Assembly: GCA_035559235.1 (NCBI GenBank)
Contig: DATMBM010000014.1
Location: 1 to 61,148 of the forward strand
Length of the DNA stretch: 61,148 bases
DNA from: Minisyncoccota bacterium
GTDB lineage: Bacteria; Patescibacteriota; Minisyncoccia; Phycocordibacterales; UBA2100
Direction of reading: 5' to 3'
This document shows, piece after piece, positions 1,729 through 41,434 of the stretch; position 1 is the stretch's first letter; each line of letters begins with the position of its first letter. The position numbers and the translations under genes are program-made. Under the pieces are notes generated by a model. The model did not search any database. It saw only the letters and a program-made list of their open reading frames with translations, and was not told where the DNA came from.

Positions 1729-1731
1729 AGA

Positions 1732-20624: not shown

Positions 20625-20626
20625 AA

Positions 20627-20977: not shown

Positions 20978-20981
20978 TGTA

Positions 20982-22903: not shown

Positions 22904-22914
22904 GAGCCGCCCCT

Positions 22915-24141: not shown

Positions 24142-24143
24142 GA

Positions 24144-24731: not shown

Positions 24732-24745
24732 AGCTGCCATTATGG

Positions 24746-24778
24746 CACAAAAACGGGCGCGATGCGCCCGTTTTTGTG
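24746..24778. terminator. bidirectional intrinsic terminator between the surface-protein gene and the sugar operon
   Basis: Perfect 15-bp stem CACAAAAACGGGCGC-GAT-GCGCCCGTTTTTGTG. Confidence 0.7.
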
Positions 24779-24796
24779 CAGTAGCGTGAACCACGA

Positions 24797-25861
24797 TTAG
24801 ATCACTTTCCTGCGCATCAAGATCGCGAATGCTCCAAATACGAGCACTGCGGATAGCGCAAGAACCGCTACACTGAGTGCGTTTCCGGAGCCGGTGTTCG
24901 GAACGCCAGGAACGGTCGGTGCGGTTACGTTCGAGATCGTTACGGTGCCGGAGGTCGGGCCGGTGCCGCCGCCGACAGCTTGTCCGACAATCGGCGTAAC
25001 CGAAACGCCCGAGCCTGAGACGGTTGCGGGAATGGAACTGGGTGTAAGCGAGAGTCCGATCGTGCCGCCAAGCGGCGCGTTTGCCGCAATGTCACACGTG
25101 ACCGCAAGCGTGACCGTTGAGCTTGAGCCGATCGTAAGCGGAGACGCCAGGCTGAACGTGTTTGTCCCGCTTGCAATTGTTGGAACGGATGTGTTCAAGG
25201 AATTTGCAAGACTGGTCACGTTGCGCACGCGGCAGTCCGAGAGATGCGACGCGGCAACACCGTTGGCAAAGGTCATGCTGACGGGTAGCGATGAAATCTG
25301 TACGGCATTGTTGGTGCCTGCTTGCATGATCACGAGTGCGAGCAACGCATCTGGTGTTCCCGGCGCGATGCGCGGCGTCGCATTTAACGTGACCCCGAGC
25401 GACGTTCCTGACGGCGCCGTTGGAGCCGCCGTCGACGAGAACTGGAATGTCGCGCCAGACGGGATACCTGAAGCAACGTCGCAGCGAAGCGTGAGTGCAG
25501 TCGTCGAATTCGCGCCTGTCGTCACCGCTGAAGTCAGCGTAAAGGTGTTGCTGCCGCTTATCGGCGCGACTGCATTTGTCAGCGCAGTCCCGCTTGCGTT
25601 GTGTAATCGACAGTTTGACAGGCTTGATGCCGCCGCATTTCCACCCAAGGTAAGTGTCAGCGGGACCTGCGACGTCGTGACGGACGTGCTGGTAGTGTTC
25701 TCGATCTCAACATTTGCCAAGGTCATTGCAGTCCCCGCGCTCGGCGTCGACGTCGTGGTGGTCACTGAGACGTTCGTACCGGTCGTCTGTGCAGCCACGA
25801 TTCCCGCGGTTCCGAGCGTGATCGCTACGAGTGTTCCCATAGCCTTTTGAGTCATGGTCAT
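24797..25861 (-). CDS. secreted Thr/Ser/Ala-rich surface protein with two tandem Cys-pair domains and a VPNTG-type C-terminal sorting signal
   Basis: Signal peptide. Internal duplication (…SNCRLHNASG…LTLRCDVASG… / …SDCRVRNVTS…LAVTCDIAAN…). C-terminus is VPNTGSG, a hydrophobic helix, then RRKVI. Confidence 0.7.
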   Translation of the reverse strand: MTMTQKAMGTLVAITLGTAGIVAAQTTGTNVSVTTTTSTPSAGTAMTLANVEIENTTSTSVTTSQVPLTLTLGGNAAASSLSNCRLHNASGTALTNAVAPISGSNTFTLTSAVTTGANSTTALTLRCDVASGIPSGATFQFSSTAAPTAPSGTSLGVTLNATPRIAPGTPDALLALVIMQAGTNNAVQISSLPVSMTFANGVAASHLSDCRVRNVTSLANSLNTSVPTIASGTNTFSLASPLTIGSSSTVTLAVTCDIAANAPLGGTIGLSLTPSSIPATVSGSGVSVTPIVGQAVGGGTGPTSGTVTISNVTAPTVPGVPNTGSGNALSVAVLALSAVLVFGAFAILMRRKVI

Positions 25862-26024
25862 ACGATTATTTTTGAATATGGCTAAACCCGCGCTGAGCGC
25901 GATTACTCCCATTCTCTACGGTGGCGATTAAAGGGGGATGAAGCTATGCGCATGGTGGCACTTACCGCAAATACATTTGGTATACTTACAGTGCGGCCGT
26001 CTAGGGAAGCGGATCAGTGTCGCA

Positions 26025-28186: not shown

Positions 28187-28861
28187 ATGAAAATCCTCAT
28201 CGTTGAAGATGAACAAAAATTAGCTACCGCGCTTGCAAAAGGGCTCCAGCTCAAAGGGTACAGCGTCGACATCGTCGCCGACGGCAAGAAGGCGCTCACG
28301 CGCATGTCGTTGCACCGCAACGATTATGACCTTGTCATTCTCGATCTCATGCTTCCGTCCATGGACGGGCATGAGATCTGCCGGCAAGCGCGCGAGATGG
28401 GTGTCACCACGCCGATCCTTATCCTTACGGCGCGCAGCGAGACTGAAAAGAAAGTTGATCTCTTGCTGAGCGGTGCGGACGATTATCTGATAAAGCCGTT
28501 TTCGTTCGAGGAGCTTTCGGCGCGCGTGCATGCGCTTTTGCGCCGGCCGAACGAGACGGTCCCCGATGTCTTAAAAGTCGATAATATCGAGCTGAATCCC
28601 GTCGAGCGGACGGTGCGGAGAGACGGCGAGGAAATCCCGCTGACGCTGAAGGAATTCGGCCTCCTCGAATACTTCATGCGGCATCCAAACCAAGTCGTGA
28701 ACCGCGAGGATTTATTAAGTCATTTGTGGGATTTCAACTATGAATCGTTTAGCAATGTGGTGGATGTCCATGTCAAGAATCTTCGAAGAAAACTTGGCAC
28801 TCGAGGCGACGCGGGCATTCTGGAAACGGTTCGCGGCATCGGTTACCGCCTTCGCGGATAG
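28187..28861 (+). CDS. OmpR/PhoB-family response regulator
   Basis: REC (ILIVEDE...DLVILDLMLPSMDG...KPF) plus winged-helix trans_reg_C (LTLKEFGLLEYFMRHPNQVV...VRGIGYRL). Confidence 0.9.
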   Translation: MKILIVEDEQKLATALAKGLQLKGYSVDIVADGKKALTRMSLHRNDYDLVILDLMLPSMDGHEICRQAREMGVTTPILILTARSETEKKVDLLLSGADDYLIKPFSFEELSARVHALLRRPNETVPDVLKVDNIELNPVERTVRRDGEEIPLTLKEFGLLEYFMRHPNQVVNREDLLSHLWDFNYESFSNVVDVHVKNLRRKLGTRGDAGILETVRGIGYRLRG

Positions 28862-29933
28862 GTACCGGTACGATCCCTTTCTCCGGACGCAGATCAACGT
28901 GATCGGGATGTTGCTCCTCTTCTCGATCATTATCCTGACGCTTGTCGGCATTCTCATCGACTATCTCTATCGCGATATCGCACTCGCGATCCTGGCCAGT
29001 GTTCGCGATTCCATCGTCTCCGCCGGGGCGGGCTCGTCCCAAACGGTCTCGCTCCCGGCGCTCGAAGACATCCGGACCGAGAACTTCACGGCCATTGTCT
29101 TCATTACCGCCGCCGTGACCGTCGCGTTCGGCTTCTTGCTGACGCGCGTGGCGCTCGGCCCGACCCGCCAAGCGCTTTCCTCCCAGAAGCAGTTCATCGG
29201 CAACATCGCGCACGAACTCCGCACGCCGCTGAGCATCATTAAAACCAATACTGAAGTCCGTCTCATGGACCCAAACATCACGGCCGAGGCGCGCGTGCTG
29301 CACCAGAGCAACATTGAGGAACTCGACCGTCTCTCACAGATCATCAACAACCTGCTCTCGCTCTCGGCATCGGTGCGGCCGGAACGCATTGAATTTGCGC
29401 GCGTGGACGCCGCGGCGGTCGCGACGGAAGTGATGCAGAAATTGGAGGGCCTCGCCAAGCTGCGCAACCTTGATTTCACGATGCGCAAGGGCTATTCGTG
29501 CTTCGTCTGGGGCAACGAATCGGCGCTTGAGCAGATCATCACGAACGTCGTCAAGAATGCGATCAATTTCACGGGCCACGGCGGCCACGTGGCATTGACC
29601 GTCGAAGAGATCGGCGACAGCCATGTCGAAATTGTCGTCCAGGACAGCGGCGCGGGCATCGCGCGATCGGATTTGTTCCATATTTTTGAGCCGTTCTACC
29701 GCGCCGACGCGTCGCGCAACCGGGCACGCGGCGGCTCGGGGCTTGGATTGACGATCGTCTCGGAACTCGTAAAGCTCCATCGAGGAAAAATTACGGTGCG
29801 CAGCGCCGTCGGCCGCGGGACAACCGTCGTCATCTCGCTCCCCGCAGCGCCGGCACCGCATACCGATCCGACGATACGCACGCGCAAGACGCTTGATGAA
29901 GTTGCAGTCGATTTCTCGCACCGGCGGATGTAA
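28740..29933 (+). CDS. intramembrane-sensing histidine kinase (2 TM, ~35-aa loop, no HAMP); start uncertain
   Basis: H-box FIGNIAHELRTPL, N box VVKNAINFT, DSGAGI, GGSGLGL. Upstream ATGs overlap the RR gene by 92 nt or more. In-frame GTG 28899 just before TM1 is an alternative start. Confidence 0.8.
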   Translation: MNRLAMWWMSMSRIFEENLALEATRAFWKRFAASVTAFADRYRYDPFLRTQINVIGMLLLFSIIILTLVGILIDYLYRDIALAILASVRDSIVSAGAGSSQTVSLPALEDIRTENFTAIVFITAAVTVAFGFLLTRVALGPTRQALSSQKQFIGNIAHELRTPLSIIKTNTEVRLMDPNITAEARVLHQSNIEELDRLSQIINNLLSLSASVRPERIEFARVDAAAVATEVMQKLEGLAKLRNLDFTMRKGYSCFVWGNESALEQIITNVVKNAINFTGHGGHVALTVEEIGDSHVEIVVQDSGAGIARSDLFHIFEPFYRADASRNRARGGSGLGLTIVSELVKLHRGKITVRSAVGRGTTVVISLPAAPAPHTDPTIRTRKTLDEVAVDFSHRRM

Positions 29934-29948: not shown

Positions 29949-30827
29949 GTGTCCATGCGTTTCCCCCGTGAAATTCCGAGCATATATGTCGCTGTCGGCG
30001 CAGCGATCCTTGTGTTGCTTGGCGGCGGCGCGGCGTATGCGTCGTATTCCAAATATGAAATGCGTGCGGCGGCGGACGCGTTCGAGCGCGACCTCATGAA
30101 CGAGCGTCTCATGGCGACTGAGGCAGAGAACGAGAAACTGCGGACCCTCTTGCAGGAAGAGGCCGCGGAAAACGAAGAATTCGGCAGACGCGTCGCGGAG
30201 CTTTCGAGCACCGTTGGCTATCTCGACAAGCTTTCGAAGACGGACCGTGAATTGCTTCAGAAATATTCGCCGGTGTACTTCTTGAGCGAAAATTTCGTTC
30301 CTGATCCGCTTGCGCCGATAGACGATGAACTGCTTGCGCGGCACGGCAGCAACATGATGATACACGGGCAGGTATTTCCGTTTCTGAAGCGGATGATGGA
30401 AGCAGCGGCAAACAACGGCGTTCCGCTCAAAGTGCTTTCCGCGTACCGCTCGTTCGGTACGCAAAGCGCCCTGAAGGCGAATTACAAGGTCACGTACGGC
30501 GCCGGCACTGCGAACCAATTCTCCGCCGACCAGGGGTATTCCGAGCACCAGCTTGGGTCCACCGTCGACTTCACGACGCCCGAAGCACCCGAAAATCTAG
30601 CGGCCTTCAGGGGTTCGCCGCAATACAACTGGTTGGTAAGCCACGCACATGAATACGGCTTCGTCCTCTCCTATCCTGAAGGCAACAGTTACTTCGTTTT
30701 TGAGCCGTGGCATTGGCGCTTCGTCGGCATCGATCTCGCGACGAGGCTCTATCATGAAAACAAATATTTCTACGACCTCGACCAACGCGAAATCAATCCG
30801 TATCTTGCCCGAATTTTCGACGAATAG
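29949..30827 (+). CDS. VanY-type D-alanyl-D-alanine carboxypeptidase (peptidase M15B), membrane-anchored with coiled coil
   Basis: LSAYRSFGTQ, SEHQLGSTVDF (SxHxxGxAxD) and EPWHWRFVG (ExxH) zinc motifs. N-terminal TM. Confidence 0.85.
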   Translation: MSMRFPREIPSIYVAVGAAILVLLGGGAAYASYSKYEMRAAADAFERDLMNERLMATEAENEKLRTLLQEEAAENEEFGRRVAELSSTVGYLDKLSKTDRELLQKYSPVYFLSENFVPDPLAPIDDELLARHGSNMMIHGQVFPFLKRMMEAAANNGVPLKVLSAYRSFGTQSALKANYKVTYGAGTANQFSADQGYSEHQLGSTVDFTTPEAPENLAAFRGSPQYNWLVSHAHEYGFVLSYPEGNSYFVFEPWHWRFVGIDLATRLYHENKYFYDLDQREINPYLARIFDE

Positions 30828-31184: not shown

Positions 31185-32546
31185 ATGTCACACGAACATC
31201 TACAAACCCATCCGCTTGGCGTCGTGCACACGGATGCAATTCCTAACCAGCGGCAACCGCGCGACACCCACGAAGTCGCCGTCATCGGCCTGGGATACGT
31301 TGGCCTTCCGCTTGCGCTCCTCGTGGCGGAAAAAGGACACACGGTCACCGGATTCGACATCGATGCGGCGAAAATTAGTGCGATTACAAAGGGTGAGGCC
31401 TCGCACGTAGGCGCGCGGGACCGAGCTCATCTCACATCACTCCGTACGTTCTCCGCAACGACGGATCCCGATACGATCGGCGCGGCCGATACGTATATCA
31501 TCTGTGTTCCAACACCCGTTTCCGACGGCCACGAACCCGATCTCGAACCGTTGAAAAGCGCCTGCCGCACCGTCGCGCAACTCCTGAAGCGCCATGCCCT
31601 CGTCGTCATCGAATCAACAATCAACCCCGGAGTGTGCGAAGAAGTCGTAGTGCCGATCCTTGAGCGCAGCGGGCTTGCCGTTGAAAGGGATTTCTACCTT
31701 GCCCACTGTCCTGAGCGCATCAATCCGGGAGATTCTCGTTGGGGCGTACGATCGATCCCGCGCGTGCTTGGTGCGGCCGGTCCTGAATCCTTGGCGCGGG
31801 CGCACGCGCTCTACAGCGGACTGATAGACGCCGAGATTACACCGATGCGCTCACTCAAAGAAGCGGAGGCCGTCAAAATGGTGGAGAATGCATTTCGCGA
31901 CGTGAACATCGCGTTCGTCAACGAGCTCGCAATGTCATTCGACAGGGCGGGCATCAACCTGCTCAACGTCATCCGCGGCGCATCGACGAAACCGTTCGGG
32001 TTCCTTCCGCACTACCCTGGCGCCGGCGTCGGGGGGCATTGCATCCCGGTCGATCCTTATTACCTGATCCGCTACGGCGAAAAAAACGGATTTGAACATC
32101 GCTTTCTCAAAACGGCGCGCACGATCAACAACAAAATGCCCTCCTACACGGTGTCGCTCCTCGCACAGGCGCTCCGCAAAAAACGAAAGCAGCTCTCGCG
32201 CTCGACAGTCGCACTCCTCGGTCTCGCGTACAAGCGCGACGTCCCGGACGAACGCGAATCACCGGCGCTTCGCATCCGCGAACTGCTTGAAAAACGCGGC
32301 ACCGTCGTACGGACATTCGATCCGTACGTCCCAGACCATTCCTCCGCATCGTCGTTAGATGTCGCATTGCAGGATGCCGATGCCGCCGTGATCGCAACGG
32401 ACCACACGCTCTTCCGCACGCTCACGCCCTTCCACTTCATGCGCGCCGGAGTCAACGTCGTCGTCGACGGTCGCAATTGCTTGCGCAAGGAGGACTTCCA
32501 AGAAAGCGGCATTCTTTACTCCGGCATCGGCCGCGCGGATGCATAA
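31185..32546 (+). CDS. UDP-sugar 6-dehydrogenase (UDP-glucose/GDP-mannose dehydrogenase family; WecC/Cap5O/TviB-like pattern)
   Basis: Rossmann VAVIGLGYVGLPLAL, ESTINPG, catalytic GGHCIPVDP, C-terminal UDP-binding domain LGLAYKRDVPDERESP. Confidence 0.85.
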   Translation: MSHEHLQTHPLGVVHTDAIPNQRQPRDTHEVAVIGLGYVGLPLALLVAEKGHTVTGFDIDAAKISAITKGEASHVGARDRAHLTSLRTFSATTDPDTIGAADTYIICVPTPVSDGHEPDLEPLKSACRTVAQLLKRHALVVIESTINPGVCEEVVVPILERSGLAVERDFYLAHCPERINPGDSRWGVRSIPRVLGAAGPESLARAHALYSGLIDAEITPMRSLKEAEAVKMVENAFRDVNIAFVNELAMSFDRAGINLLNVIRGASTKPFGFLPHYPGAGVGGHCIPVDPYYLIRYGEKNGFEHRFLKTARTINNKMPSYTVSLLAQALRKKRKQLSRSTVALLGLAYKRDVPDERESPALRIRELLEKRGTVVRTFDPYVPDHSSASSLDVALQDADAAVIATDHTLFRTLTPFHFMRAGVNVVVDGRNCLRKEDFQESGILYSGIGRADA

Positions 32547-32561
32547 CGGCGTATATGACGT

Positions 32562-34013
32562 ATGAACACATCAAATGCACTTACATTCCCCGACGAGCAT
32601 GCGACGAACGCACGGCGCATCGGTAACGAAATATGGTTCCGTCGCAAGGCGGCGGAACACGAGCACCAGCCCGCAGCCGCGCCGTCGCGCGACATCTGGT
32701 TCAACGTCATACTGTTCGCCTGCGCGCTCGGCCTGCTTATCGTCCTTATCTTCTTGAAAGCGAAGACGGTCGCGACCGTGACCGTGGACCCGGCGCTCGT
32801 GGCATACACCTCCTTTGTGACGCTCTTCCAACTCTCGCGCCTCGTCACGTCCCTCATGTACCGCCGCTCTTACAAGGCGGCGCTCGAAGAAGAGGCGCCG
32901 TCCGCATCAAAGGACCTCCCGAAAATCTCGTTCGTGATCCCATGCATGAACGAAGAGAACGAGATCAAAAACACGATCAGCGCGTGCTTCGCCGCTACAT
33001 ACCCGCGGCATCTCCTCGAAGTCATCGTCATCAACGACGCCTCGACCGACTCGACGCAGCTGAAGATTTTTGAAATGAAAGACATCCATCCGGACCTCGT
33101 GATCATCGATTGGTCGGAAAACCGCGGTAAACGCCATGGGATGGCCGAAGGATTCCGCCGCGCGACGGGCGAAATCGTGATCCAGCTCGACAGCGACAGC
33201 CGTATCGAGCCGACCGACGTGCCGAAGCTCGCCGAGCTTTTCCGAAATCCGAAAGTCGGCGCGGTCTCGTTCCATACCGATCCGGCGAACGCCGACGAAA
33301 ACCTTGTCACCAGGTTGCAGGCCGCCTACTACTTCCTCTCTTTCCGCATTCTCAAGGCCGCGGAGTCGACGTTCCGTGTCGTGTTCTGCTGCAGCGGCTG
33401 CGCTTCCGCATACCGCCGCTCCGTCGTCCTGCCAGTCATCGATGAGTGGTTGAAGGAAAAATTCCTCGGAAAGCCGGTGACGTGGGGCGACGACCGCGCG
33501 CTTACGAATCGTGTCATCAAGCAAGGGTACGAGACGATGTACAGCGACCGCGTCCGCGCATACACGATCGTGCCGGACACCTTCTTCAAATTCATCAAGC
33601 AACAGATCCGCTGGAAGAAGGGCTGGCTTGTGAACTCGATCTTTGCCGCGAAGTTCATCATCAAGCGCGATCCGTTTGTCGCGTTCACCTACTTCTTCCC
33701 GCTTGTGCTCGTGACGACGCTTGCGCCCTTCATGGCGGCGCGCGCCTTCCTCTACACGCCGATCGCCCACGGATACTCATCGACGCTCTTATATGTTCTT
33801 GGCGTCCTTGCGATTGCAGGATGCATCGCGGTCGTCTATCGCTTCTACTCGCGATCAAACCGGTATTGGCCGTACGTCTTTTTCTGGGCGCTTTTCAACA
33901 TGTTCATCCTCTCGTACCTCCTCCTCGTCGCGATCGCGACCATCCAAAACCGCTCATGGGGCACGCGGTCTGTGTCGGCATCGCGGCCGTCAGCCGCGCC
34001 GGTACGAGCATAA
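32562..34013 (+). CDS. class I hyaluronan synthase (HasA)-like processive GT2 polysaccharide synthase
   Basis: Collinear with recalled S. pyogenes HasA motifs: NRGKRHGMAEGF (NKGKRHAQAWAF), IQLDSDS (LTVDSDT), CCSGCASAYRR (CSGPLSIYRR), GDDRALTN (GDDRCLTN), KQQIRWKKGW (KQQNRWNKSF), NRSWGTR (NTEWGTR). Flanking TM helices. Confidence 0.85.
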   Translation: MNTSNALTFPDEHATNARRIGNEIWFRRKAAEHEHQPAAAPSRDIWFNVILFACALGLLIVLIFLKAKTVATVTVDPALVAYTSFVTLFQLSRLVTSLMYRRSYKAALEEEAPSASKDLPKISFVIPCMNEENEIKNTISACFAATYPRHLLEVIVINDASTDSTQLKIFEMKDIHPDLVIIDWSENRGKRHGMAEGFRRATGEIVIQLDSDSRIEPTDVPKLAELFRNPKVGAVSFHTDPANADENLVTRLQAAYYFLSFRILKAAESTFRVVFCCSGCASAYRRSVVLPVIDEWLKEKFLGKPVTWGDDRALTNRVIKQGYETMYSDRVRAYTIVPDTFFKFIKQQIRWKKGWLVNSIFAAKFIIKRDPFVAFTYFFPLVLVTTLAPFMAARAFLYTPIAHGYSSTLLYVLGVLAIAGCIAVVYRFYSRSNRYWPYVFFWALFNMFILSYLLLVAIATIQNRSWGTRSVSASRPSAAPVRA

Positions 34014-34015
34014 GT

Positions 34016-35605
34016 ATGAGAGTAATGCCCGCTACTCCACAGGCTCTTCGGGCGCGAACTCAGTCGCTCCTGCGTGTACTCCTTTTGGGGGCGATAGTGA
34101 CGCTGGCAGCGCTCATCGCGGGCGGCGTCGTGTATATCCAGCGCAATCCTGCCCTTTCCACGTACGCCCTCATGGCGTTGGCACGGGAACCATTTCTCCG
34201 AATGGAGTTTGCCGGGATTGCCGAAGCCGCTCCCACGGGCAGAAACGCAGACTCAATCCCGGTCCTTACGTACCACCGTATCGTTTCCGACTCGAGCGAC
34301 GTGAATAATGTCTCGTATTCCAACTTCAAGGACCAGATGGCGACACTGAAGCGCGCCGGGTGGGAAACGGTGACGCTGGAAGAGTTCGAAGCATTTGTCC
34401 TCGGAGAAAAACAATTGCCGGAAAAGTCGTTTGTTCTCACCTTTGACGACGGAGCAAAAGAAAGCTTCTACCCCGTCGACCCGATCCTCAAAATCCTCGG
34501 ATATGAGGCTGTCAATTTCATCATCGTCGAGTCATCGCATATTCCGCACACGACCTACTACCTGACGCCGCGCGAGATCGAACGGATGCTTGAAACCGGC
34601 CGCTGGTCGATCGGCTCACATTCCTTTGACGGCCACCACCCGTATCCGACGGACGGGCACGGGGGAACCGGTATTTTCTTTGCCGATCGCATCTGGAAGG
34701 CTGACGAGGGCCGGCTCGAAACGCCTGAAGAATTCCGGGAGCGCGTTCGTGACGACCTCGTGCGCTCGAAAATGTCGCTCGAGGCCGCATATGATGTACC
34801 AATCAATAGTTTTGCCTTCCCGCTCGGGAACGAAACCGGCATCAACGGCGCCAACAATTTTCCGGAAGGCGCAATCGTGACCGAGGAAGAGGCCCGCGCA
34901 AACTATTCGTTCGGGCACTTGCAGCTCGCCAACCAGCACTTCACCACAAATTTCCCGCGCACGTCATCCAATCCCCCGCATGCGACGCCGGCTGAGGATT
35001 TCCGGGTCTGGCGCATCCATGTCGACTTCGACTGGGACGGAAAACGCGTGCTTCAGATCCTTGAAAATGGCCGCTCAAAAGAGCTGCCCTTTGAAGACGA
35101 TTTCTCGGAAAACCGCGGGTGGATTCCCGCGTGGGGCGAACTGGGAATGGGGCGCAATAATTTTGTGCTGCGCGCAACACCGGATACCAGCGCCGCATCG
35201 GCGTTTCTCGACGGGACCGCGATGTGGGACAACTACTCGTTTGACGCGGCCGTCAACTGGCAGCGCGGTCACGCGATCGTGCTTGCGGATGTCGTACACT
35301 CGAGCACCTATCACTCATGCGTCTTTTCACCCGGTAGCGTCCGCATACAGCGCACGATCGACGGAGTCACTGAGACGCTTGTGGAGCGCGCAGATCCACG
35401 GATCCAGTACGGCGAAGTGCGCGTCGGCGTCCGTGTGCGCGGATCGGTCATTGAATGTACGTGGAACTTCGCATCGATGGTCGAGAACTACTCCCGCGAT
35501 TTTACCGGGGGCGTCGGGTTGCAAACGTGGGACGAGGCGCTTGGCAACGCGGAATTGCGCGTTTCGTCTGTCATCGCGCGACCGTTTAACGGTATGGATG
35601 AATGA
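34016..35605 (+). CDS. polysaccharide deacetylase (CE4/NodB) with C-terminal ConA/LamG-like jelly-roll domain, N-terminal TM anchor
   Basis: Start at MRVMPAT, 3 nt after the synthase stop. IPVLTYHRI, FVLTFDDGAKE, GSHSFDGHH. C-terminal W...G.W...Y.F...GGVGLQTW pattern. Confidence 0.8.
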   Translation: MRVMPATPQALRARTQSLLRVLLLGAIVTLAALIAGGVVYIQRNPALSTYALMALAREPFLRMEFAGIAEAAPTGRNADSIPVLTYHRIVSDSSDVNNVSYSNFKDQMATLKRAGWETVTLEEFEAFVLGEKQLPEKSFVLTFDDGAKESFYPVDPILKILGYEAVNFIIVESSHIPHTTYYLTPREIERMLETGRWSIGSHSFDGHHPYPTDGHGGTGIFFADRIWKADEGRLETPEEFRERVRDDLVRSKMSLEAAYDVPINSFAFPLGNETGINGANNFPEGAIVTEEEARANYSFGHLQLANQHFTTNFPRTSSNPPHATPAEDFRVWRIHVDFDWDGKRVLQILENGRSKELPFEDDFSENRGWIPAWGELGMGRNNFVLRATPDTSAASAFLDGTAMWDNYSFDAAVNWQRGHAIVLADVVHSSTYHSCVFSPGSVRIQRTIDGVTETLVERADPRIQYGEVRVGVRVRGSVIECTWNFASMVENYSRDFTGGVGLQTWDEALGNAELRVSSVIARPFNGMDE

Positions 35606-35620
35606 CGTGCCGTGCGTTCC

Positions 35621-35628
35621 TTCATGAA
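35621..35628. promoter_or_regulatory. TTCATGAA palindrome, copy 4
   Basis: Exact 8-mer in the spacer before the first ConA-like gene. Confidence 0.3.
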
Positions 35629-35757
35629 AAAGTAGTTAAACCACAAAAAAATATTTGAACGTCAGATGAAGACCTCTACGATTGGTTATTGAGAAACGTG
35701 CGCACCGCTTGAGAATTCTCGTGCGTGCGATTCTCGATACCAGTTAACGATCATCAC

Positions 35758-36603
35758 ATGCATCCATACCGTATGCCGCGAAAGACGCGCTCTTTCGCCC
35801 TTACGACAGTTGTTCTTTCTGTGTTACTCATAGCGGCGCTCATGCCCTGGTCGACGCACGCGATCGCCGCGCTCAAGCTCTCGTCGCTTGATTATCAGTT
35901 CAAAGTCGACGGGACGCTCCGCGAAACCGGTTCGATGAACGAAAGCTCATCACCGTATTGGTGGCTCAATTCAGGCGGCGCACTCATCCTCGACAACGGG
36001 ATTGGTATGACGTACCAGGGCACGGTGCCGACAATCGATCGGTGGCGCGGCCTTTACGCGAACAACAACCCAACGGACACCGACAACGGCACGCATCCGC
36101 AAAACCTCTTCCGCCTGGTGTCGCGCTCGACATGGGAAAACGTCCGCGCCGAGGCGTCGTACAAGATCACGCGCGACAACTTCTCGTCCTCGCCGAATCG
36201 GAATGCCTCCAACGGGCTCCTGCTCATGTCACGGTACAAGGACGGAAACACGCTCTACTACGCCGGCGTGCGCGTGGATGGCACGGCCGTCATCAAGAAA
36301 AAGCACAACGGCACGTACACCACCCTCGCGCAAAAGAAACTCTATGCCGGTAGTTATTCGGACGGCGGCACGACGAACCTCTTACCCCACGGTTCATGGT
36401 TGAGCCTGCGATCAGAGACGGTGACCAACGGTGACGGCTCCGTCACAGTGCGCCTCTATGTGAAGAACCCTGGGGAATCGTCGTTCTCGAAGGTTCTTGA
36501 GGCACGCGACAGTTCGAACCCGATAACGGGAAGCGGACACATCGGCATCCGCACTGACTTCATGGACGTGCAGTTCGACAACGTCAAAGCGACGAAAATC
36601 TAA
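35758..36603 (+). CDS. secreted ConA-like/LamG-type jelly-roll protein, paralog 1
   Basis: Signal/TM then SSSPYWWLNSGG...HPQNLFRL...NGLLLMSRYKDGNTLYYAGVRVDG...GHIGIRTDFMDVQFDNVKATKI. Could start at GTG 35725. Confidence 0.6.
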   Translation: MHPYRMPRKTRSFALTTVVLSVLLIAALMPWSTHAIAALKLSSLDYQFKVDGTLRETGSMNESSSPYWWLNSGGALILDNGIGMTYQGTVPTIDRWRGLYANNNPTDTDNGTHPQNLFRLVSRSTWENVRAEASYKITRDNFSSSPNRNASNGLLLMSRYKDGNTLYYAGVRVDGTAVIKKKHNGTYTTLAQKKLYAGSYSDGGTTNLLPHGSWLSLRSETVTNGDGSVTVRLYVKNPGESSFSKVLEARDSSNPITGSGHIGIRTDFMDVQFDNVKATKI

Positions 36604-36612
36604 CGCAGCTTC

Positions 36613-37521
36613 ATGAGTTATTTAGGGGGCCGGCGGCATAGTGTACCTATGCAGCCGGTCCTCAAGCATCGTTGGGGCGCCATAGCGCGCGCCGTTTTTC
36701 TCGCCGTTGTAGCCATCACCGCATTCGGCCTCCTCGCTCGCACATTCATCGCGCCGCCGACGCAAGAACCGGTGCCCGAGACGGAAGTTCCTTCCCCGTT
36801 CCACTACGCATTCGACGTCGAAGGGATTTTACACGAGAGCGCATCAGCCGATGAAAGCTCTTCACCGTACTGGTGGCTTGATTCGGGCGGCGAAGTCATT
36901 CTTGAGGGCGGTCGCGGCAAGACTATGCAAGGCGCCGCACCTGAGATCATGTGGCGCACCCGCTATGCGCTTGCCAATGCGCTCGACACCGACGACGGGC
37001 GCTACCCACAAAACCTGTTCCGGCTCCTCACGCGTTCGCACTGGGAGAACGTGCGCGCAGAGATGTCGTTCCGCATCATCCGTGACAATTTCATCGATTC
37101 GCCAAACCGCAATGAATCCAACGGCCTCCTTCTCATGTCGCGCTACCGCGACGGCGACAACTTGTACTACGCGGGCATCCGCGTCGATGGACACGCGGTC
37201 ATCAAGAAAAAGTACGACGGAACCTATTACACAATGGCCGAGAAGCCAATTTTCCCCGGCGAATACGAAAGCGTAGACAAAAAGAACCTACTTCCTCACC
37301 GCGAATGGTTGCACCTGCGTATGGAAACGCGTTCCATCGGCAACGAAGTGCGGATTTCCCTCTCATACAAAAACGGTGACGGTGAATGGCAAGAGCTTCT
37401 GAGCGCGCGCGACAGTGGTGAATACGCCGGCACGCCGCCAATCCTCGGCTCGTACCCCCTGGGTATCAGGACAGATTTTATGGACGTCGAGTTCGACGAC
37501 TTCCGGGCGAAGAGGATATAA
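36613..37521 (+). CDS. secreted ConA-like/LamG-type jelly-roll protein, paralog 2
   Basis: Collinear with paralog 1 (SSSPYWWLDSGG...YPQNLFRL...NGLLLMSRYRDGDNLYYAGIRVDG...LGIRTDFMDVEFDDFRAKRI). Confidence 0.6.
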   Translation: MSYLGGRRHSVPMQPVLKHRWGAIARAVFLAVVAITAFGLLARTFIAPPTQEPVPETEVPSPFHYAFDVEGILHESASADESSSPYWWLDSGGEVILEGGRGKTMQGAAPEIMWRTRYALANALDTDDGRYPQNLFRLLTRSHWENVRAEMSFRIIRDNFIDSPNRNESNGLLLMSRYRDGDNLYYAGIRVDGHAVIKKKYDGTYYTMAEKPIFPGEYESVDKKNLLPHREWLHLRMETRSIGNEVRISLSYKNGDGEWQELLSARDSGEYAGTPPILGSYPLGIRTDFMDVEFDDFRAKRI

Positions 37522-37526
37522 AGCAG

Positions 37527-37557
37527 ATGTGGCCAAACAAAAAGCGTTTGGCCACAT
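37527..37557. terminator. bidirectional terminator between convergent genes
   Basis: Perfect 12-bp stem ATGTGGCCAAAC-AAAAAGC-GTTTGGCCACAT. Confidence 0.65.
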
Positions 37558-37561
37558 GCGC

Positions 37562-38320
37562 TCATTCTGAGATGTTTAGCATATACCCACGACCCCAGAC
37601 GGTATCAATTCGGACTCGTCTGAGTGGAGCTATTTTCTTCCGCACTTTACAAATGCACACGTCGATGATCTTTTGCGCAGGCTCAGTCTTTCCCGCGTAC
37701 AAGTGCTCTAGAATCATCTCGCGCGTCACAACCTGTTCAACGTGACGCACAAGTAGCTCCAAAATCTGGAACTCCTGTTTGGTAAGCGCCACTGAGATGC
37801 CGCCCGACGCGACCTGTGCTGATTCGATATTGAGCGTAATGTTGCGATATTCGATGACCTGACTTGCGGCTTCTGCCGCCTGTTCGGGTATGTCCGCAGT
37901 CTGCGGAGTCGTTTCAGGCTGCTCAGACACCTCCTCTGACCCTTGGGTTGCCTCGGTCTGTGTTTCGCTCATGCTGCGATACTCCTGAATGCGCGTCGCC
38001 CGGAGCGCGAGCACGCCGCCAGCCTTTAGCCGCGCTTCCCACTGCAGAAATTCCTCCGGTCGGATCGAATAGCGGGTCGAAATTTCATCGAGGGTGATCA
38101 ACCCGCCGCGCACGAGCGCAATCACAACAGTCTTCCAACGGTACACCCACCGACGCACGGGTGGCGTCGGCAAATCCTTCAAGGTCAGCAATTCTCCGTG
38201 CATACCTCTCACGGCGACAGGGAGTGTCTCACATACGCCATTATGTCGATTGATCGCGTCAATCCGCATATCCGGCAGAACGTGAACTGGCTTCCCGAAA
38301 TCCGGGTGTCGCGATGTCAT
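37562..38320 (-). CDS. receiver-less regulator: DUF1153-like HTH N-domain, acidic linker, OmpR-type winged-helix DNA-binding domain
   Basis: N-terminus LPTPPVRRWVYRWKTVVIALVRGGLITLDEISTRYSIRPEEFLQWE...LRATRIQEYR. C-terminus LTKQEFQILELLVRHVEQVVTRE...VWGRGYML. GGAAGGAG SD. Confidence 0.7.
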   Translation of the reverse strand: MTSRHPDFGKPVHVLPDMRIDAINRHNGVCETLPVAVRGMHGELLTLKDLPTPPVRRWVYRWKTVVIALVRGGLITLDEISTRYSIRPEEFLQWEARLKAGGVLALRATRIQEYRSMSETQTEATQGSEEVSEQPETTPQTADIPEQAAEAASQVIEYRNITLNIESAQVASGGISVALTKQEFQILELLVRHVEQVVTREMILEHLYAGKTEPAQKIIDVCICKVRKKIAPLRRVRIDTVWGRGYMLNISE

Positions 38321-38592: not shown

Positions 38593-39342
38593 ATGACACA
38601 GGCACATGGCAGTGATGCAATTCGTGCGCATTATTGGCTTAGCGTCGTTATCCTCATGGTAGCGTTTCTGCAACTCACAGGAATTGCGCATGCGGACAGC
38701 GATAAGAAAAGCGGCGTTTCCGCCGGAACGGGAGTCGAGGTGAACATCGGCTCGAACGGTAACGTCCTCGTGCGGGGAGCAAAGGTGACGAGCGTGTCGG
38801 ATTCGACGATCAACGCGAATACGTCCCTGGGTTCGTCCGTCCTTTCGTGGGTCGTAAAGACAGATTCAAACACGGACTTTTCAGCGCACAAGAACGGCGC
38901 CGAAGGTCTCGCGAATATCGCGGTCGGCGATATCGTCTCGTTCCGCGGCACGATTGACCAGGCGGTGACCGGTCTCACGGTCAACGCCCGCCAGGTAAAG
39001 GATTGGTCGTCCGTCGAGACCAAAGCAAAGCTTGAGGGCATCGTGACGTCCATCAACGCGACGCTCGGCTCGTTTACGGTCTCGAAGAGGAACGCGACAA
39101 CGACGGTGCAGACATCGTCTTCCACGAAATTCACCGAAGATGGTGATACGGCATCTTTCGCGGACATCTTCTTGAACGCGAAGGTGAAAATTCAAGGTTT
39201 CTTCAACGCGTCAACGTCCGTCTTCACCGCAAGCTCGGTAGAAATCGACGAAGATCACGACGACGGGTGGGATAAGGACGACCGAAAGCAGTGGCGCGAT
39301 TGGATCCGCTCCAAAGTCTGGCTGAAATTCTGGAACGATTAG
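38593..39342 (+). CDS. secreted DUF5666-repeat protein
   Basis: Signal peptide. Repeated beta-rich V.V.G..VTS....I.V modules. Asp/Trp-rich tail. Typical neighbour of ECF/DUF5667 pairs. Confidence 0.65.
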   Translation: MTQAHGSDAIRAHYWLSVVILMVAFLQLTGIAHADSDKKSGVSAGTGVEVNIGSNGNVLVRGAKVTSVSDSTINANTSLGSSVLSWVVKTDSNTDFSAHKNGAEGLANIAVGDIVSFRGTIDQAVTGLTVNARQVKDWSSVETKAKLEGIVTSINATLGSFTVSKRNATTTVQTSSSTKFTEDGDTASFADIFLNAKVKIQGFFNASTSVFTASSVEIDEDHDDGWDKDDRKQWRDWIRSKVWLKFWND

Positions 39343-39351
39343 GCATCAACA

Positions 39352-39387
39352 AAAAGCCGCCCATTTTCTAGAAAATGGGCGGCTTTT
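39352..39387. terminator. perfectly palindromic intrinsic terminator
   Basis: AAAAGCCGCCCATTTT-CTAG-AAAATGGGCGGCTTTT (16-bp arms). Confidence 0.75.
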
Positions 39388-39456
39388 CGAGTACAATACG
39401 GGGGCGATTTGAGCAATTCATCAAGGGTAAGGCATGGCCCGGCGAATCGTCTATGT

Positions 39457-40002
39457 ATGACAGACACCCGCGCGACACAAGAAGCGGCATTTCTCGAAGC
39501 ATTCAACATGTACTCTGATGCCCTATTCAGACATGCGGCGTTCCGGATCTCGAATCGGGAACGCGCGCTCGACCTCACCCAAGACGCCTACCTGAAGGCG
39601 TGGGATTACTTGCAGCAGGGCGGCGAAGTACGGGAATTCAAGAGCTTCTTGTACCGCATTCTCAACAACCTCATCATCGACGAGTACCGCAGAAGCAAAT
39701 CGTCGTCGTTGGATGAGATGCTTGAGAACGACACGGGTGCAATGGAGGTGCGGCTCTCCGAAGGCAGCGTGCGCGAAGCCGAAGAGACCATCGACGAATC
39801 GAAACTGATCGACACAATCCATTCGCGCATCCCGCTCCTTCCCGAAACCTACCGTGAAGTGATAACCTTGCGGTACGTGGACGGATTCAGCCCGAAAGAA
39901 ATCGCAGAAATGATCGGCGTCTCGGAAAACGTCGTCTCAGTACGGATACACCGCGGCACGCAAAAACTGCGTGCACTGTGCGCCGAAGAACACCATGACT
40001 AA
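39457..40002 (+). CDS. ECF-type RNA polymerase sigma-70 family factor
   Basis: Region 2 (DLTQDAYLKAWDYL...FKSFLYRILNNLIIDEYRR) and region 4 (VITLRYVDGFSPKEIAEMIGVSENVVSVRIHRGTQKLR). TTG 39409 is an alternative start. Confidence 0.85.
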   Translation: MTDTRATQEAAFLEAFNMYSDALFRHAAFRISNRERALDLTQDAYLKAWDYLQQGGEVREFKSFLYRILNNLIIDEYRRSKSSSLDEMLENDTGAMEVRLSEGSVREAEETIDESKLIDTIHSRIPLLPETYREVITLRYVDGFSPKEIAEMIGVSENVVSVRIHRGTQKLRALCAEEHHD

Positions 40003-41434
40003 TTTCGAAAAACATATCAAGAAGGCGGCCGAGGACTATTCCCTCTCGGATGCGGAAAAAGCGCGCATGGAACGCGTGCTCAAAAGCTACATGCGCTTTA
40101 AGCCGGTCCGCTCCGCACATGTCACGCACATTTCGACGTGGAGTTGGATCGCCTACCTGCATCGACCGATCGCAGCCGCCCTTATTTTCGTCCTCGTGAC
40201 ATCTGGCGGCATCACGTATGCCGCCGAAGGCGCGCTCCCCGGCGATGTGTTGTACGCGGTAAAAACGGTTGTGAACGAGCCCGTACGCGTTGCGCTTGCG
40301 GCCGACGTTGAAGCGAAGGCGGAAGTACAGATGGAAATCGCCGAGCGCCGTATCGAAGAAGCGACGACGCTTGCGGCTGAAGGCCGACTCGACGACACAA
40401 CGCAAGACGAACTCGCCGCCTCTTTTAAATCATATGCCGCCGCGGCAACTGAAAGTATTGCGAAAGCGAACACGGAAGAAGGCGCTGCGATCGAACTTGC
40501 CGCGCGATTTGAAACCCGTCTCGTCGCGCACGAAAGCGTCCTCGCGGAAGTCGAAATGGAATCAATGGAATCAGATGACGACGGGACGCTTCGCTCTCAC
40601 CGCCTGACTGAAGCCGTGCGCGAGACGAGCGAGCGCCTTTCCGAAGAGCGACACTCTCGCGCCATCGCGCTCAATATCAACGTCGCGGCGCCAATGGCCG
40701 CCACGGTTTCCGAAGATGTGATCGCCACAGATGCCGCGACAACCATGACGATGAGTCTTGTCGTCGACGATGCCGCAACCGCGACGGAAAGCGCAAGCGC
40801 AAAGCTCCAGGTCGCATCCGAAACTACACCCACGGAGCCGCCCGCGCCGACGTCTGCACCAAGCGAAAAAACAATTTCACGCATGAAGAGCGCGGCGGAA
40901 AAAAGTCTCACAAAAGCTGAAAAGACGCTCCGTGGCGCCCGCTCGCTCTCGGCCGAGGCGCGGGCGCGCGCTGAAGCCGATATCACGTATGCTGGTGAAC
41001 TGGTCGGCAGCGGTAAAGACTATCTCGGGGATGATCTCCGCGCCGAGGCGTTTGCCGCGTTTGAAGAATCGCTCCGTGTTTCCGAACAAGCAGTCGTGTA
41101 CATCAAGGCGGCGCCAAAACTTGAAAAGGCCCGGGCACGCAACGCCTCGCGCAATAGCGACGCAGGCTCCGGATCGTCCAAAGGTCCGACGATCGAAATC
41201 TCCCTTCCCGGAATTTCCGTGAATGCGACCGTGACGCCGACATCGACGGCGCAGCACGCCACGTCTTCCACCAGCACAGACGAGCGAAAAGATGATCGGG
41301 ACGAAGAAAATTCCGACGGAAACGATAAAGCGGACCACGATGATAAAGACGAAATACGCGATGAAAGCGACGGCCACGACGATTCCGGCGGATCAGGACT
41401 TAACATACTGCAGCGCTTGAACATCTCCCTCTAA
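39995..41434 (+). CDS. anti-sigma-like single-pass membrane protein with DUF5667-like helical ectodomain and acidic tail
   Basis: The ATG overlaps the sigma stop by 8 nt. Short cytoplasmic N-terminus, TM (IAAALIFVLVTSGGITYAA), Ala/Glu-rich helical repeats, C-terminal DERKDDRDEENSDGNDKADHDDKDE. Confidence 0.6.
   Translation: MTNFEKHIKKAAEDYSLSDAEKARMERVLKSYMRFKPVRSAHVTHISTWSWIAYLHRPIAAALIFVLVTSGGITYAAEGALPGDVLYAVKTVVNEPVRVALAADVEAKAEVQMEIAERRIEEATTLAAEGRLDDTTQDELAASFKSYAAAATESIAKANTEEGAAIELAARFETRLVAHESVLAEVEMESMESDDDGTLRSHRLTEAVRETSERLSEERHSRAIALNINVAAPMAATVSEDVIATDAATTMTMSLVVDDAATATESASAKLQVASETTPTEPPAPTSAPSEKTISRMKSAAEKSLTKAEKTLRGARSLSAEARARAEADITYAGELVGSGKDYLGDDLRAEAFAAFEESLRVSEQAVVYIKAAPKLEKARARNASRNSDAGSGSSKGPTIEISLPGISVNATVTPTSTAQHATSSTSTDERKDDRDEENSDGNDKADHDDKDEIRDESDGHDDSGGSGLNILQRLNISL

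Follow-up and report, generated by a model that had tools for sequence, protein, structure and literature searches.

The window analyzed here, a 61,148-nucleotide stretch from a Minisyncoccota bacterium, carries five co-directional genes on the forward strand (31185-37521), whose ORFs were found where a sequence-only reading of this DNA had placed them. They encode a nucleotide-sugar 6-dehydrogenase (31185..32546, 453 aa), a membrane GT2 synthase (32562..34013, 483 aa), a two-domain CE4 deacetylase (34016..35605, 529 aa) whose ATG lies 2 nt past the synthase stop codon, and two paralogs, D (35725..36603, starting at GTG 35725 or ATG 35758) and E (36613..37521, with an alternative start, ATG 36649, that fits a 290-aa database entry). 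The spacing is tight, with intergenic gaps of 15, 2, 119, and 9 nt. A hairpin with a 13-bp stem (37527..37557) separates the stop codon of E from that of a convergent gene; we tentatively take it for a probable bidirectional terminator at the end of the operon, in a region where the count of terminator-like sites is not above that in shuffles. Just 5' of the five genes lies a VanY peptidase gene. Further upstream on the same strand, the translations point to a response regulator of the OmpR type (28187-28861) together with a histidine kinase (28740-29933 for the longest ORF). The closest relatives (loci L001, L003, L008, and L011) have this pair immediately 5' of their dehydrogenase gene, and a response regulator is present in the retrieved flanking sequence (up to 6-8 kb per side) in 15 of the 82 related loci of our survey, which covers CPR, DPANN, and a small number of other genomes, with per-gene denominators of 79, 71, or 70. 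As a weaker assignment, the pair may regulate the operon.

The synthase had been described as collinear with hyaluronan synthases (HAS), motif for motif, and the alignment bears this out: RGKRH (residues 188-192), DSDS (210-213), FCCSGCASAYRR (275-286), WGDDRALTN (308-316), QQIRWKKGW (347-355), and WGTR (466-469) are all invariant among 23 homologs. Like the class I HAS (streptococcal and Bacillus HasA, CvHAS, and the vertebrate enzymes), it is a single-polypeptide membrane GT2, and the class I motifs GKR, DSD, C-SG..YR, GDDR.LTN, QQ.RW.K, and terminal WGTR follow in the same order. GDDR and WGTR are identical in Bacillus anthracis HasA, chlorovirus HAS, and Xenopus HAS1, whereas NodC has GEDR and WLSR at these positions; the CCSGC...YRR region resembles the CCCGP...YRR of NodC. 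One clear N-terminal and three C-terminal transmembrane (TM) segments are predicted, the latter ending in WGTR, with a cytosolic GT-A domain in between.

Profile searches return the GT2 and Chitin_synth_2 Pfam domains. The best NCBIfam model is NodC, matched end-to-end at 182 bits for a cutoff of 550, while the PgaC model yields 125 bits for a cutoff of 422; by profile score, HAS and NodC are both closer than PgaC. Among solved structures, the best-scoring relatives belong to the class I HAS, namely Xenopus HAS1 and chlorovirus HAS. Neighbor-joining trees (278-280 columns, with partial HAS sequences and PgaC as the outgroup) place the synthase, with good support, in a clade of its own next to the HAS/NodC group, in the company of a GT2 from a Paenibacillus plasmid and one metagenomic contig. 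Its identification as a true HAS was rejected, since it falls outside the clade of bacterial, viral, and vertebrate HAS. On sequence grounds, the protein is best described as a hyaluronan-synthase-like, membrane-embedded member of the HAS/NodC/chitin-synthase-like group, but not a HAS.

The dehydrogenase displays the Rossmann motif GLGYVGLP and the catalytic-cysteine motif GGHCIPVDP, and matches all three UDPG_MGDP_dh Pfam domains. It scores 402.7 against TIGR03026 (cutoff, 189.8) but stays below the cutoff of every NCBIfam equivalog model, so that its substrate cannot be assigned in this way. Its best PDB relatives are the UDP-ManNAc dehydrogenase 4r16 (281 bits) and Cap5O (232 bits), far above the UDP-glucose dehydrogenases, which reach at most 141 bits. 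These scores agree with the earlier impression of a UDP-N-acetylhexosamine (GlcNAc or ManNAc) type and speak for an enzyme that is not hasB-like. Of 70 related loci, only 25 have a homolog directly 5' of the synthase, and synthases with and without an adjoining dehydrogenase are interspersed in the tree. Across the family, the dehydrogenase is thus an accessory gene of the cluster, and the core polymer cannot on this basis be said to contain uronic acid. Since the gene is missing in about two-thirds of the loci and the tree is intermixed, its product may feed another pathway; alternatively, the gene may sit elsewhere in genomes without an adjacent copy.

These data bear on whether the locus could be a true hasA/hasB-type operon for hyaluronan, whose synthase would alternate UDP-GlcA and UDP-GlcNAc. 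A sugar dehydrogenase directly 5' of a synthase related to class I HAS, with GDDR and WGTR signatures like those of HAS and unlike NodC, is what such an operon would contain, and the JGI automatic annotation labels the synthase homologs "hyaluronan synthase". We nevertheless consider this very improbable. The dehydrogenase groups with the UDP-HexNAc enzymes and is absent next to the synthase in most related loci, the synthase branches outside the HAS clade, and a deacetylase is its near-obligatory partner (77 of 79 loci), whereas we know of no role for a deacetylase in the known hyaluronan systems.

The deacetylase comprises a TM anchor predicted by hydropathy scan (residues 21-39; 34076..34132, forward strand), in a region that AlphaFold2 (AF2) models as a long N-terminal helix; a CE4 catalytic domain delimited by PgaB alignment and Foldseek (residues ~78-300; 34247..34915, forward strand); and a C-terminal CBM66/DUF1080-like β-sandwich found by Foldseek (residues ~330-525; 35003..35590, forward strand). 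The Pfam match is Polysacc_deac_1 (PF01522, 48 bits), and the best matches by sequence are PgaB N-domains, with which the DD pair, the H-x4-H pair, and an upstream His are conserved; H87, D144, D145, H202, and H207 are the candidate catalytic or metal-binding residues. The AF2 model (pLDDT, 93) consists of a PgaB/IcaB-type CE4 domain followed by the sandwich, and its Foldseek matches are PgaB, IcaB, and CBM66, the C-domain aligning to the CBM66 structures 4azz and 4b1m with TM scores of 0.72-0.79. The sandwich is tandemly duplicated in some homologs, and PF06439 is weakly matched in 3 of 40. The membrane-anchored CE4 enzyme with a DUF1080-like C-domain proposed earlier is hence recovered in all its parts. 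In the 77 loci with a deacetylase directly 3' of the synthase, it is a CE4 enzyme in 68 and a DUF2334-type enzyme in 9 DPANN loci, the latter looking like a non-orthologous replacement.

The kinship with PgaB, BpsB, and IcaB, in both sequence and fold, raises the question of a poly-β-1,6-GlcNAc (PNAG) system of the PgaCB/IcaAB type, which likewise combines a membrane GT2 with an extracytoplasmic CE4 enzyme of the same motif arrangement, and whose PgaC model is also matched by the synthase. Several features make this unlikely. PgaC scores far under its cutoff, and the synthase lies closer to HAS and NodC than to PgaC, the outgroup of the trees. Moreover, unlike PgaABCD/IcaADBC, the window operon has no evident gene for a PgaD/IcaD-like small membrane protein and no PgaA porin, and its CE4 enzyme bears a CBM66-like sandwich in place of the GH153 C-domain of PgaB. 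The synthase-deacetylase pairing is also reminiscent of nodBC. Short, partly deacetylated chitooligosaccharides, serving as signals or primers rather than as a long surface polymer, would suit the end-to-end match to NodC, the best curated model, and the NodC-like CCSGC...YRR region. We consider a NodC/NodB-type system improbable all the same, given a score far under the NodC cutoff, GDDR and WGTR motifs that differ from those of NodC, and the lack of NodA. Furthermore, the PgaB-like character of the deacetylase, its TM anchor, and its fusion to a CBM-like module imply that it acts on an exported chain.

Paralogs D and E share 50% identity. Pfam and NCBIfam searches with D gave no matches, and E has about 1480 homologs, all "hypothetical" and none with a Pfam domain; no PDB sequence relative of E was found up to E = 10, and PF06439 is weakly matched in 5 of 39 of its homologs. 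A TM segment is predicted in D (residues 23-41). The AF2 model of E (pLDDT, 90) is a ConA-like sandwich whose best Foldseek matches are CBM66, GH16 glucanases, and legume lectins, as the jelly-roll assignment in the sequence-only reading had led us to expect. Both proteins are thus predicted to begin with a hydrophobic anchor or signal at the N-terminus and to continue as a ConA-like sandwich; the family shows neither a recognizable catalytic motif nor informative domain fusions. The shared jelly-roll signature that had linked them to the deacetylase holds for the fold but is marginal in sequence, BLASTP between the deacetylase C-domain and D/E finding nothing and hhalign giving 16% probability. 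They have in common a fold and weak PF06439 matches, not clear homology. For both, the best fold match is the CBM66/PF06439 superfamily (DUF1080, 3-keto-disaccharide hydrolase); unlike its members, the sandwiches of the window proteins have no Pfam match of their own and no PDB sequence relative.

The locus is not the unusual one-off it had seemed. Many lineages of CPR and DPANN, archaea included, keep the gene order at identities of 45-80%, and its recurrence in dozens of independent genomes puts the cluster far beyond chance. Since the deacetylase accompanies the synthase almost always, members of the D/E family occur in 53 of 71 loci, and a dehydrogenase adjoins in the minority given above, the core of the cluster is the synthase plus the extracellular deacetylase. 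On the Paenibacillus plasmid, which represents a sister lineage, the GT2 is flanked by CE4 genes and a gene of the chitinase family GH18. Contig L094, likewise a sister lineage, has the same order of dehydrogenase, GT2, CE4, and D/E-like genes, at only 27-37% identity. That the genes are mere neighbors without a common product, the GT2 acting, for instance, on a lipid carrier or protein and the CE4 enzyme on peptidoglycan, a frequent substrate of such enzymes, could draw on the adjacent VanY gene, but VanY occurs in only 2 related loci, the order persists in archaea, which lack peptidoglycan, and the synthase has the QxxRW motif and TM-bundle architecture of polymer-translocating GT2s. We give this reading very little credence.

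The window has the look of Patescibacteria DNA, close to Kaiserbacteria. We think it probable, with some reservation, that the five genes form a synthase-dependent cell-surface polysaccharide operon of this Patescibacteria (CPR) bacterium. The product would most likely be a partly de-N-acetylated HexNAc polymer, following a chitin/chitosan or PNAG logic, with HexNAc-uronic acid as a possible further component in loci that have the dehydrogenase. What the analysis shows is which domains are present, that catalytic motifs and gene order are conserved, and which folds are predicted; from this we infer substrates, linkage, polymer length, topology, and paralog role along the following lines. The membrane GT2 would polymerize a UDP-N-acetylhexosamine, most likely UDP-GlcNAc, at the cytosolic face and thread the chain outward through the TM bundle at its own C-terminus, in the manner of HAS, NodC, and chitin synthases. 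In this genome, the dehydrogenase would oxidize UDP-N-acetylhexosamine to UDP-GlcNAcA or UDP-ManNAcA, a possible second GT2 substrate that would yield an acidic HexNAc/HexNAcA polymer. Outside the membrane, the anchored CE4 enzyme could use its CBM66-like module to grip the growing chain while stripping some N-acetyl groups, much as PgaB and IcaB remove them from PNAG. The anchored or secreted ConA-like paralogs may then bind, tether, or trim the polymer, taking the slot of the glycanases or lectin-like proteins of other synthase-dependent systems. Polymer length is not fixed by this scheme, because NodC, a close relative of the synthase, yields only pentamers. A membrane synthase with de-N-acetylation and binding or trimming outside the cell had already been put forward, and all the evidence on the synthase, the PgaB-like CE4 enzyme, and the paralogs fits it.

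The combination had also been called foreign to textbook systems. Our literature search found no paper on the prokaryotic cluster, but clusters of UDP-GlcNAc 6-dehydrogenase (UNGD), a CHS-like enzyme, and a deacetylase are known from the genomes of chloroviruses and some fungi (PMC4059230, PMC5122149). By published description, the UNGD, CV class/CHS8, and deacetylase trio comprises the same three functions (PMC4059230, PMC5122149, PMC7053769); the CBM66-like fusion and the D/E family are additions of the prokaryotic cluster. Giant-virus contigs also show a dehydrogenase adjoining a HAS-like GT2, and the sampled viral GT2s of this kind fall in the HAS-side clade of the neighbor-joining tree, apart from the synthase family. 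Since the operon is conserved in many ultra-small symbionts, both CPR bacteria and DPANN archaea, the polymer may be a common cell-surface feature of these organisms.

Five co-directional ORFs, designated A to E, occupy positions 31185-37521 of the window on the plus strand, with spacers of 15, 2, 119 and 9 nt. They encode a nucleotide-sugar dehydrogenase (A, 31185-32546, 453 aa), a GT2 synthase (B, 32562-34013, 483 aa), a CE4 deacetylase (C, 34016-35605, 529 aa) and two paralogs, D (from a GTG at 35725 or an ATG at 35758 to 36603) and E (from 36613, or 36649, to 37521). From sequence comparisons and structural models, this operon is predicted to be a synthase-dependent exopolysaccharide system that combines a GT2 enzyme carrying a transmembrane (TM) bundle with a putative extracytoplasmic polymer-modifying enzyme. 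The sequence-only reading had described a hyaluronan-synthase-like locus with a deacetylase and jelly-roll domains, and this observation is confirmed. Its interpretation, an exported polymer of uronic acid and N-acetylhexosamine (HexNAc) that is partly de-N-acetylated and then bound or trimmed outside the cell, is supported in part.

Gene B matches the Pfam GT2 models and Chitin_synth_2, and its hydropathy profile shows one strong N-terminal TM segment and three C-terminal ones. When aligned to B. anthracis HasA, CvHAS and XlHAS1, it displays the GT2 catalytic and channel motifs DxD, GDD, QxxRW and a C-terminal WGT[R/S]. All of the synthase motifs named from the sequence alone are present in B and invariant across 23 homologs. 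Class I hyaluronan synthases (HAS) clearly top the ranking of B among solved structures, both with the single sequence (Xenopus HAS1, 1.8e-28; chlorovirus HAS, 7e-24) and with the family profile (HAS, 138 and 106 bits; BcsA, 41; chitin synthase, 27). The same profile scores the GT2 of a Paenibacillus plasmid at 342 bits, HasA at 192, the chitooligosaccharide synthase NodC at 162 and PgaC at 132. B shares GDDR.LTN and the terminal WGTR with HAS, whereas NodC has GEDR and WLSR at these places; its CCSGC..YRR stretch, in contrast, bears the closer likeness to NodC. Among curated models, NodC (TIGR04242) is the best match, end to end, at 182.5 bits versus a cutoff of 550.

The phylogeny with HasA, NodC and PgaC that had been proposed as a check places B in a separate clade beside HAS and NodC. 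Our neighbor-joining (NJ) trees were built from 278-280 shared columns with 100 bootstraps and PgaC as the outgroup, the references being B. anthracis pXO1 HasA, two NodC, two PgaC, the Paenibacillus plasmid GT2 and those parts of CvHAS and XlHAS1 that could be aligned. The synthases of ultra-small bacteria (CPR) and archaea (DPANN) form one clade with 97-98% support, which joins the Paenibacillus GT2 and, in the extended tree, the metagenomic contig L094 with 100% support. The clade of bacterial HasA, viral and vertebrate HAS and NodC stands apart, with 87% and 69% support in the two trees. We therefore describe B as a putative synthase that is HAS-like by architecture and motifs and lies outside the HAS clade, the deep branching being provisional in NJ trees that include partial HAS sequences.

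The dehydrogenase also bears on the hyaluronan alternative. A contains the three UDPG_MGDP_dh domains and passes the nucleotide-sugar dehydrogenase subfamily model TIGR03026 (402.7 bits versus a cutoff of 189.8). Its best match in the PDB is the UDP-ManNAc dehydrogenase 4r16 (281 bits), followed by Cap5O (232 bits) and then by CalS8 and an NDP-GalNAcA dehydrogenase, while UDP-glucose dehydrogenases reach at most 141 bits. The earlier impression that A is of the N-acetylhexosamine type and not a hasB is supported. A fails every equivalog cutoff, including those for archaeal and bacterial UDP-ManNAc dehydrogenase, TviB, AglM and TuaD; for the WecC (UDP-ManNAc) and TviB/WbpA (UDP-GlcNAc) models the scores and cutoffs are 333/750, 243/459 and 239/592, and the TuaD and Ugd models score it far under their cutoffs. 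A is accordingly predicted to be a dehydrogenase of the UDP-N-acetylhexosamine branch, an assignment at class level that singles out no one substrate. None of the 43 ORFs of the window that were scanned with Pfam matched Epimerase_2 (UDP-GlcNAc 2-epimerase). A true hyaluronan operon, in which a HAS would alternate UDP-GlcNAc with UDP-GlcA supplied by a UDP-glucose 6-dehydrogenase partner (hasB), is rejected as a membership, since both the tree placement and the partner fail; despite the conserved motifs, we give this explanation lower weight.

Gene C carries a predicted TM anchor at residues 21-39 and matches PF01522 (Polysacc_deac_1) with 48.1 bits versus a gathering score of 23.1, its closest matches being PgaB N-domains, BpsB and IcaB. 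Residues H87, D144/D145, H202 and H207 align to H55, D114/D115, H184 and H189 of PgaB; across 40 homologs, all of these but H207 are invariant, and H207 itself varies little. In the AlphaFold2 (AF2) model (pLDDT 93, pTM 0.89), the N-domain superposes on PgaB, IcaB and PplD with TM scores of about 0.8 by Foldseek. C would thus be a CE4 polysaccharide deacetylase of the PgaB/IcaB type, with its activity predicted from sequence and model. Its C-domain model matches CBM66 (Foldseek probability 1.0; target-normalised TM 0.72-0.79, rmsd 2.5-2.8 Å), then GH16 glucanases and GH43 accessory domains. Some C homologs carry two copies of this domain, a duplication typical of a binding module.

The pairing of a GT2 with a PgaB-like deacetylase is also what a PNAG system would show. 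However, B scores 125.3 bits versus a cutoff of 422.3 with the PgaC/IcaA model (TIGR03937), and C scores 90.4 bits versus 321.9 with the PgaB equivalog (TIGR03938), over model positions 4-213 only; the GH153 domain of PgaB is absent from C, where the models show the CBM66-like sandwich instead. With both equivalog cutoffs missed, a PNAG operon is rejected as a membership and given lower weight. The same holds for a Nod-like operon making an oligosaccharide: NodC is the best curated model for B, but its cutoff is missed, the nodA and nodB partners are missing (no NodA-like gene is adjacent), and the neighbouring deacetylase is PgaB-like and TM-anchored.

The paralogs D and E share 50% identity; both carry a hydrophobic segment near the N-terminus, and neither has a Pfam or NCBIfam match. 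Database searches link E to about 1,480 relatives, none of them named or carrying a Pfam domain. The fold check suggested for the paralogs, run on E, returned a ConA-like sandwich (AF2 pLDDT 90) whose best Foldseek match is again CBM66 (probability 1.0; target-normalised TM 0.60-0.72, from a predicted model as for C), followed by GH16 lichenases, a GH43 accessory domain and legume lectins. Weak matches to PF06439 (DUF1080/3-keto-disaccharide hydrolase) occur in 5 of 39 D/E homologs (best E-value 0.0018) and in 3 of 40 deacetylase homologs (best E-value 0.00089); in the window, D, E and the C-domain of C give no hit at the Pfam gathering score. Since BLASTP between D/E and this C-domain gave nothing and hhalign gave a probability of 16%, they appear to share a common fold only, without convincing homology. 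The D/E profile has no match among PDB sequences even at E = 10, and longer homologs show no fusion to a catalytic partner, only tandem duplications of their own sandwich domains. The family is unusually conserved, with 35 invariant columns that include E75, Q133, N134, R137, N170, R190, D192, K199, K200, R286, D288 and D291. This conservation is compatible with a lectin role and with an enzymatic role alike.

Relatives of the synthase number more than 1,000, most of them in Patescibacteria MAGs, where the JGI automatic name is "hyaluronan synthase". A search of genomes with the single sequence returned unrelated GT2s only, while our alignment-based scan of one-genome-per-species contigs yielded 80 loci. 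Their CPR sources are Paceibacterota and MAGs labelled Kaiser-, Moran-, Doudna-, Levyi-, Wildermuth-, Giovannoni- and Saccharibacteria, and their DPANN sources Woese-, Pace-, Nano- and Micrarchaeota, labels that may be imperfect; a few contigs come from Actinomycetes and Anaerolineales. Gene content was assessed by tblastn against these loci and two database contigs. A deacetylase lies directly 3' of the synthase on the same strand in 77 of the 79 loci with enough flank, being CE4 in 68 and of predicted DUF2334 type, overlapping the synthase stop, in 9 DPANN loci; the C-domain is present in 63 of the 77. One to three D/E copies occur in 53 of 71 loci and a dehydrogenase directly 5' of the synthase in 25 of 70, synthases with and without this neighbour being intermixed in the NJ tree. 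It is with this gene content in view that we give lower weight to the explanation that the five genes are unrelated neighbours without a shared product.

Among the DPANN loci L073-L086, the DUF2334-type gene (e.g., L073:8155-9048 and L081:8275-9285; overlap with the synthase stop, about 16 nt) occupies the place of the CE4 and CBM fusion, apparently as a non-orthologous gene that has taken over its function. In the woesearchaeal locus L084, by contrast, dehydrogenase, GT2, CE4 and D/E are all retained, as in the bacteria. The nearest named homologs of C and E are found in Candidatus Kaiserbacteria and other Patescibacteria MAGs, which points to a CPR bacterium as the source of the window.

Outside CPR and DPANN, the nearest synthase homolog in a cultured organism is a 625-aa GT2, 36% identical to B, on the Paenibacillus cellulositrophicus plasmid NZ_CP045296.1 (L087:2547-10177), where the gene order is CE4, GT2, CE4, GH18; this makes it a tractable model of the sister lineage. 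At 4592-10389 of L094, a 66.7-kb contig with 59% G+C that IMG/VR lists as viral (UViG), a dehydrogenase gene is followed by GT2, CE4 and D/E-like genes as in the window (identities of 35, 37, 33 and 27%, in that order), so that the four-gene architecture exists outside the CPR/DPANN clade. A scan of viral contigs with family-specific patterns found nothing, and the broader HAS-wide alignment found 41 loci. A dehydrogenase adjoins HAS-like GT2s in giant-virus contigs, and in the NJ tree these GT2s group with HAS rather than with the CPR family. A pair of UDP-GlcNAc 6-dehydrogenase and chitin-synthase-like genes has been described from chloroviruses, phaeoviruses and fungi, often with a polysaccharide deacetylase as the third gene (Chen et al. 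2014, PMC4059230; Goncalves et al. 2016, PMC5122149), and the fungal enzyme has been termed a chitin/hyaluronan synthase of unknown product (Kappel et al. 2020, PMC7053769). Full-text literature searches combining hyaluronan or chitin synthase with CPR/DPANN terms returned no description of the cluster.

The window has a G+C content of about 56%, and the 43 ORFs scanned with Pfam (the remaining ones are all shorter than 270 aa) make up ordinary chromosomal content, including a tRNA synthetase, TsaD, TGT, thymidylate synthase, trehalose genes, MASE1 kinases and an ECF sigma factor with DUF5667/DUF5666. A hairpin with a 13-bp stem (37527-37557) separates E from the convergent gene, and a terminator-like site lies 3' of the upstream VanY gene; the promoter and terminator scan of this region gave site counts not above those of shuffles. 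The VanY-type D-Ala-D-Ala carboxypeptidase (29949-30827, plus strand) has a TM segment at its N-terminus and a region resembling a coiled coil. Its gene, located between a two-component system and the operon, probably does not belong to the polysaccharide system, as it is present in only 2 related loci. The convergent gene (37562-38320, minus strand) encodes a DUF1153 fused to an OmpR-type winged-helix DNA-binding domain without a receiver domain, which is an unusual regulator architecture. An OmpR-type regulator is present in 15 of 82 loci within the fetched flanks (up to 6-8 kb on each side), directly upstream in the closest relatives. Immediately downstream, 38593-41434 (plus strand) carries a DUF5666 protein, an ECF-type sigma factor and a DUF5667 protein, and the relative L003 also has a downstream DUF5666 gene. 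An N-terminal MASE1 membrane sensor domain is found in two hybrid histidine kinases of the window (17792-19846 and 25938-28091, both plus strand), and several related loci, e.g., L001, L008, L026 and L043, also have a MASE1 kinase near the operon.

Two sugar-related clusters lie on the minus strand. The first (544-6036) encodes a GT4 glycosyltransferase, inositol-monophosphatase and alpha-amylase family members and a 741-aa trehalose-6-phosphate synthase-like GT20 protein whose N-terminal extension of about 275 residues has no assigned domain. The second (19848-25912), notable given the reduced CPR genome, is a carbohydrate-utilisation run of ROK family, GH5/GH42-like, GH1 and cupin-type glucose-6-phosphate isomerase proteins with two proteins lacking a Pfam match. 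A member of the F420-0:gamma-glutamyl ligase family (PF01996; 45606-46295, minus strand) may serve another function, because the organism is unlikely to make F420.

The constant pairing of a predicted channel-forming GT2 with an extracytoplasmic de-N-acetylase follows the same principle as PNAG (PgaC/PgaB), chitin-to-chitosan conversion and NodC/NodB, which leads us to propose that the product is a HexNAc polymer made in a synthase-dependent manner. Pfam scans of the operon detected neither a c-di-GMP receptor (PilZ or similar) nor an outer-membrane porin with a TPR scaffold; such a porin would be unexpected if the cell has a single membrane. Once exported, the polymer would be partly de-N-acetylated by C, whose CBM66-like module may grip the chain, and the D/E proteins could bind, tether or trim it. 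The dehydrogenase, here and in about a third of relatives, probably provides a UDP-HexNAc-uronic acid as an extra substrate. By analogy with the GH18 of the sister Paenibacillus locus and from the NodC/HAS affinity, we favour a beta-1,4 (chitin-like) linkage over beta-1,6.

[quoted passage not shown] Judged by sequence and models, the interest of this operon lies in its breadth over both radiations, its distinct synthase clade, the putative CE4 and CBM66-like fusion and the conserved, unannotated partner family. A further, rather improbable reading is that the locus represents an unrecognised glycan system, common to and exchanged between CPR and DPANN, whose partly de-N-acetylated HexNAc/HexNAc-uronic acid polymer, potentially zwitterionic, serves as an episymbiont coat or host-attachment matrix, with D and E forming a new family of polymer-specific lectins or glycanases. 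The retention of a multi-gene glycan operon at 45-80% identity in many lineages of CPR and DPANN alike makes it a strong candidate for a core structure of the cell surface. The D/E family, with about 1,500 members and neither annotation nor a solved relative, offers a clean target for structural and functional work. Since the synthase clade lies between HAS and NodC, knowing its product would throw light on the evolution of substrate choice and chain length in this enzyme superfamily, and could also clarify the chloroviral and fungal clusters that combine a dehydrogenase, a CHS-like gene and a deacetylase.
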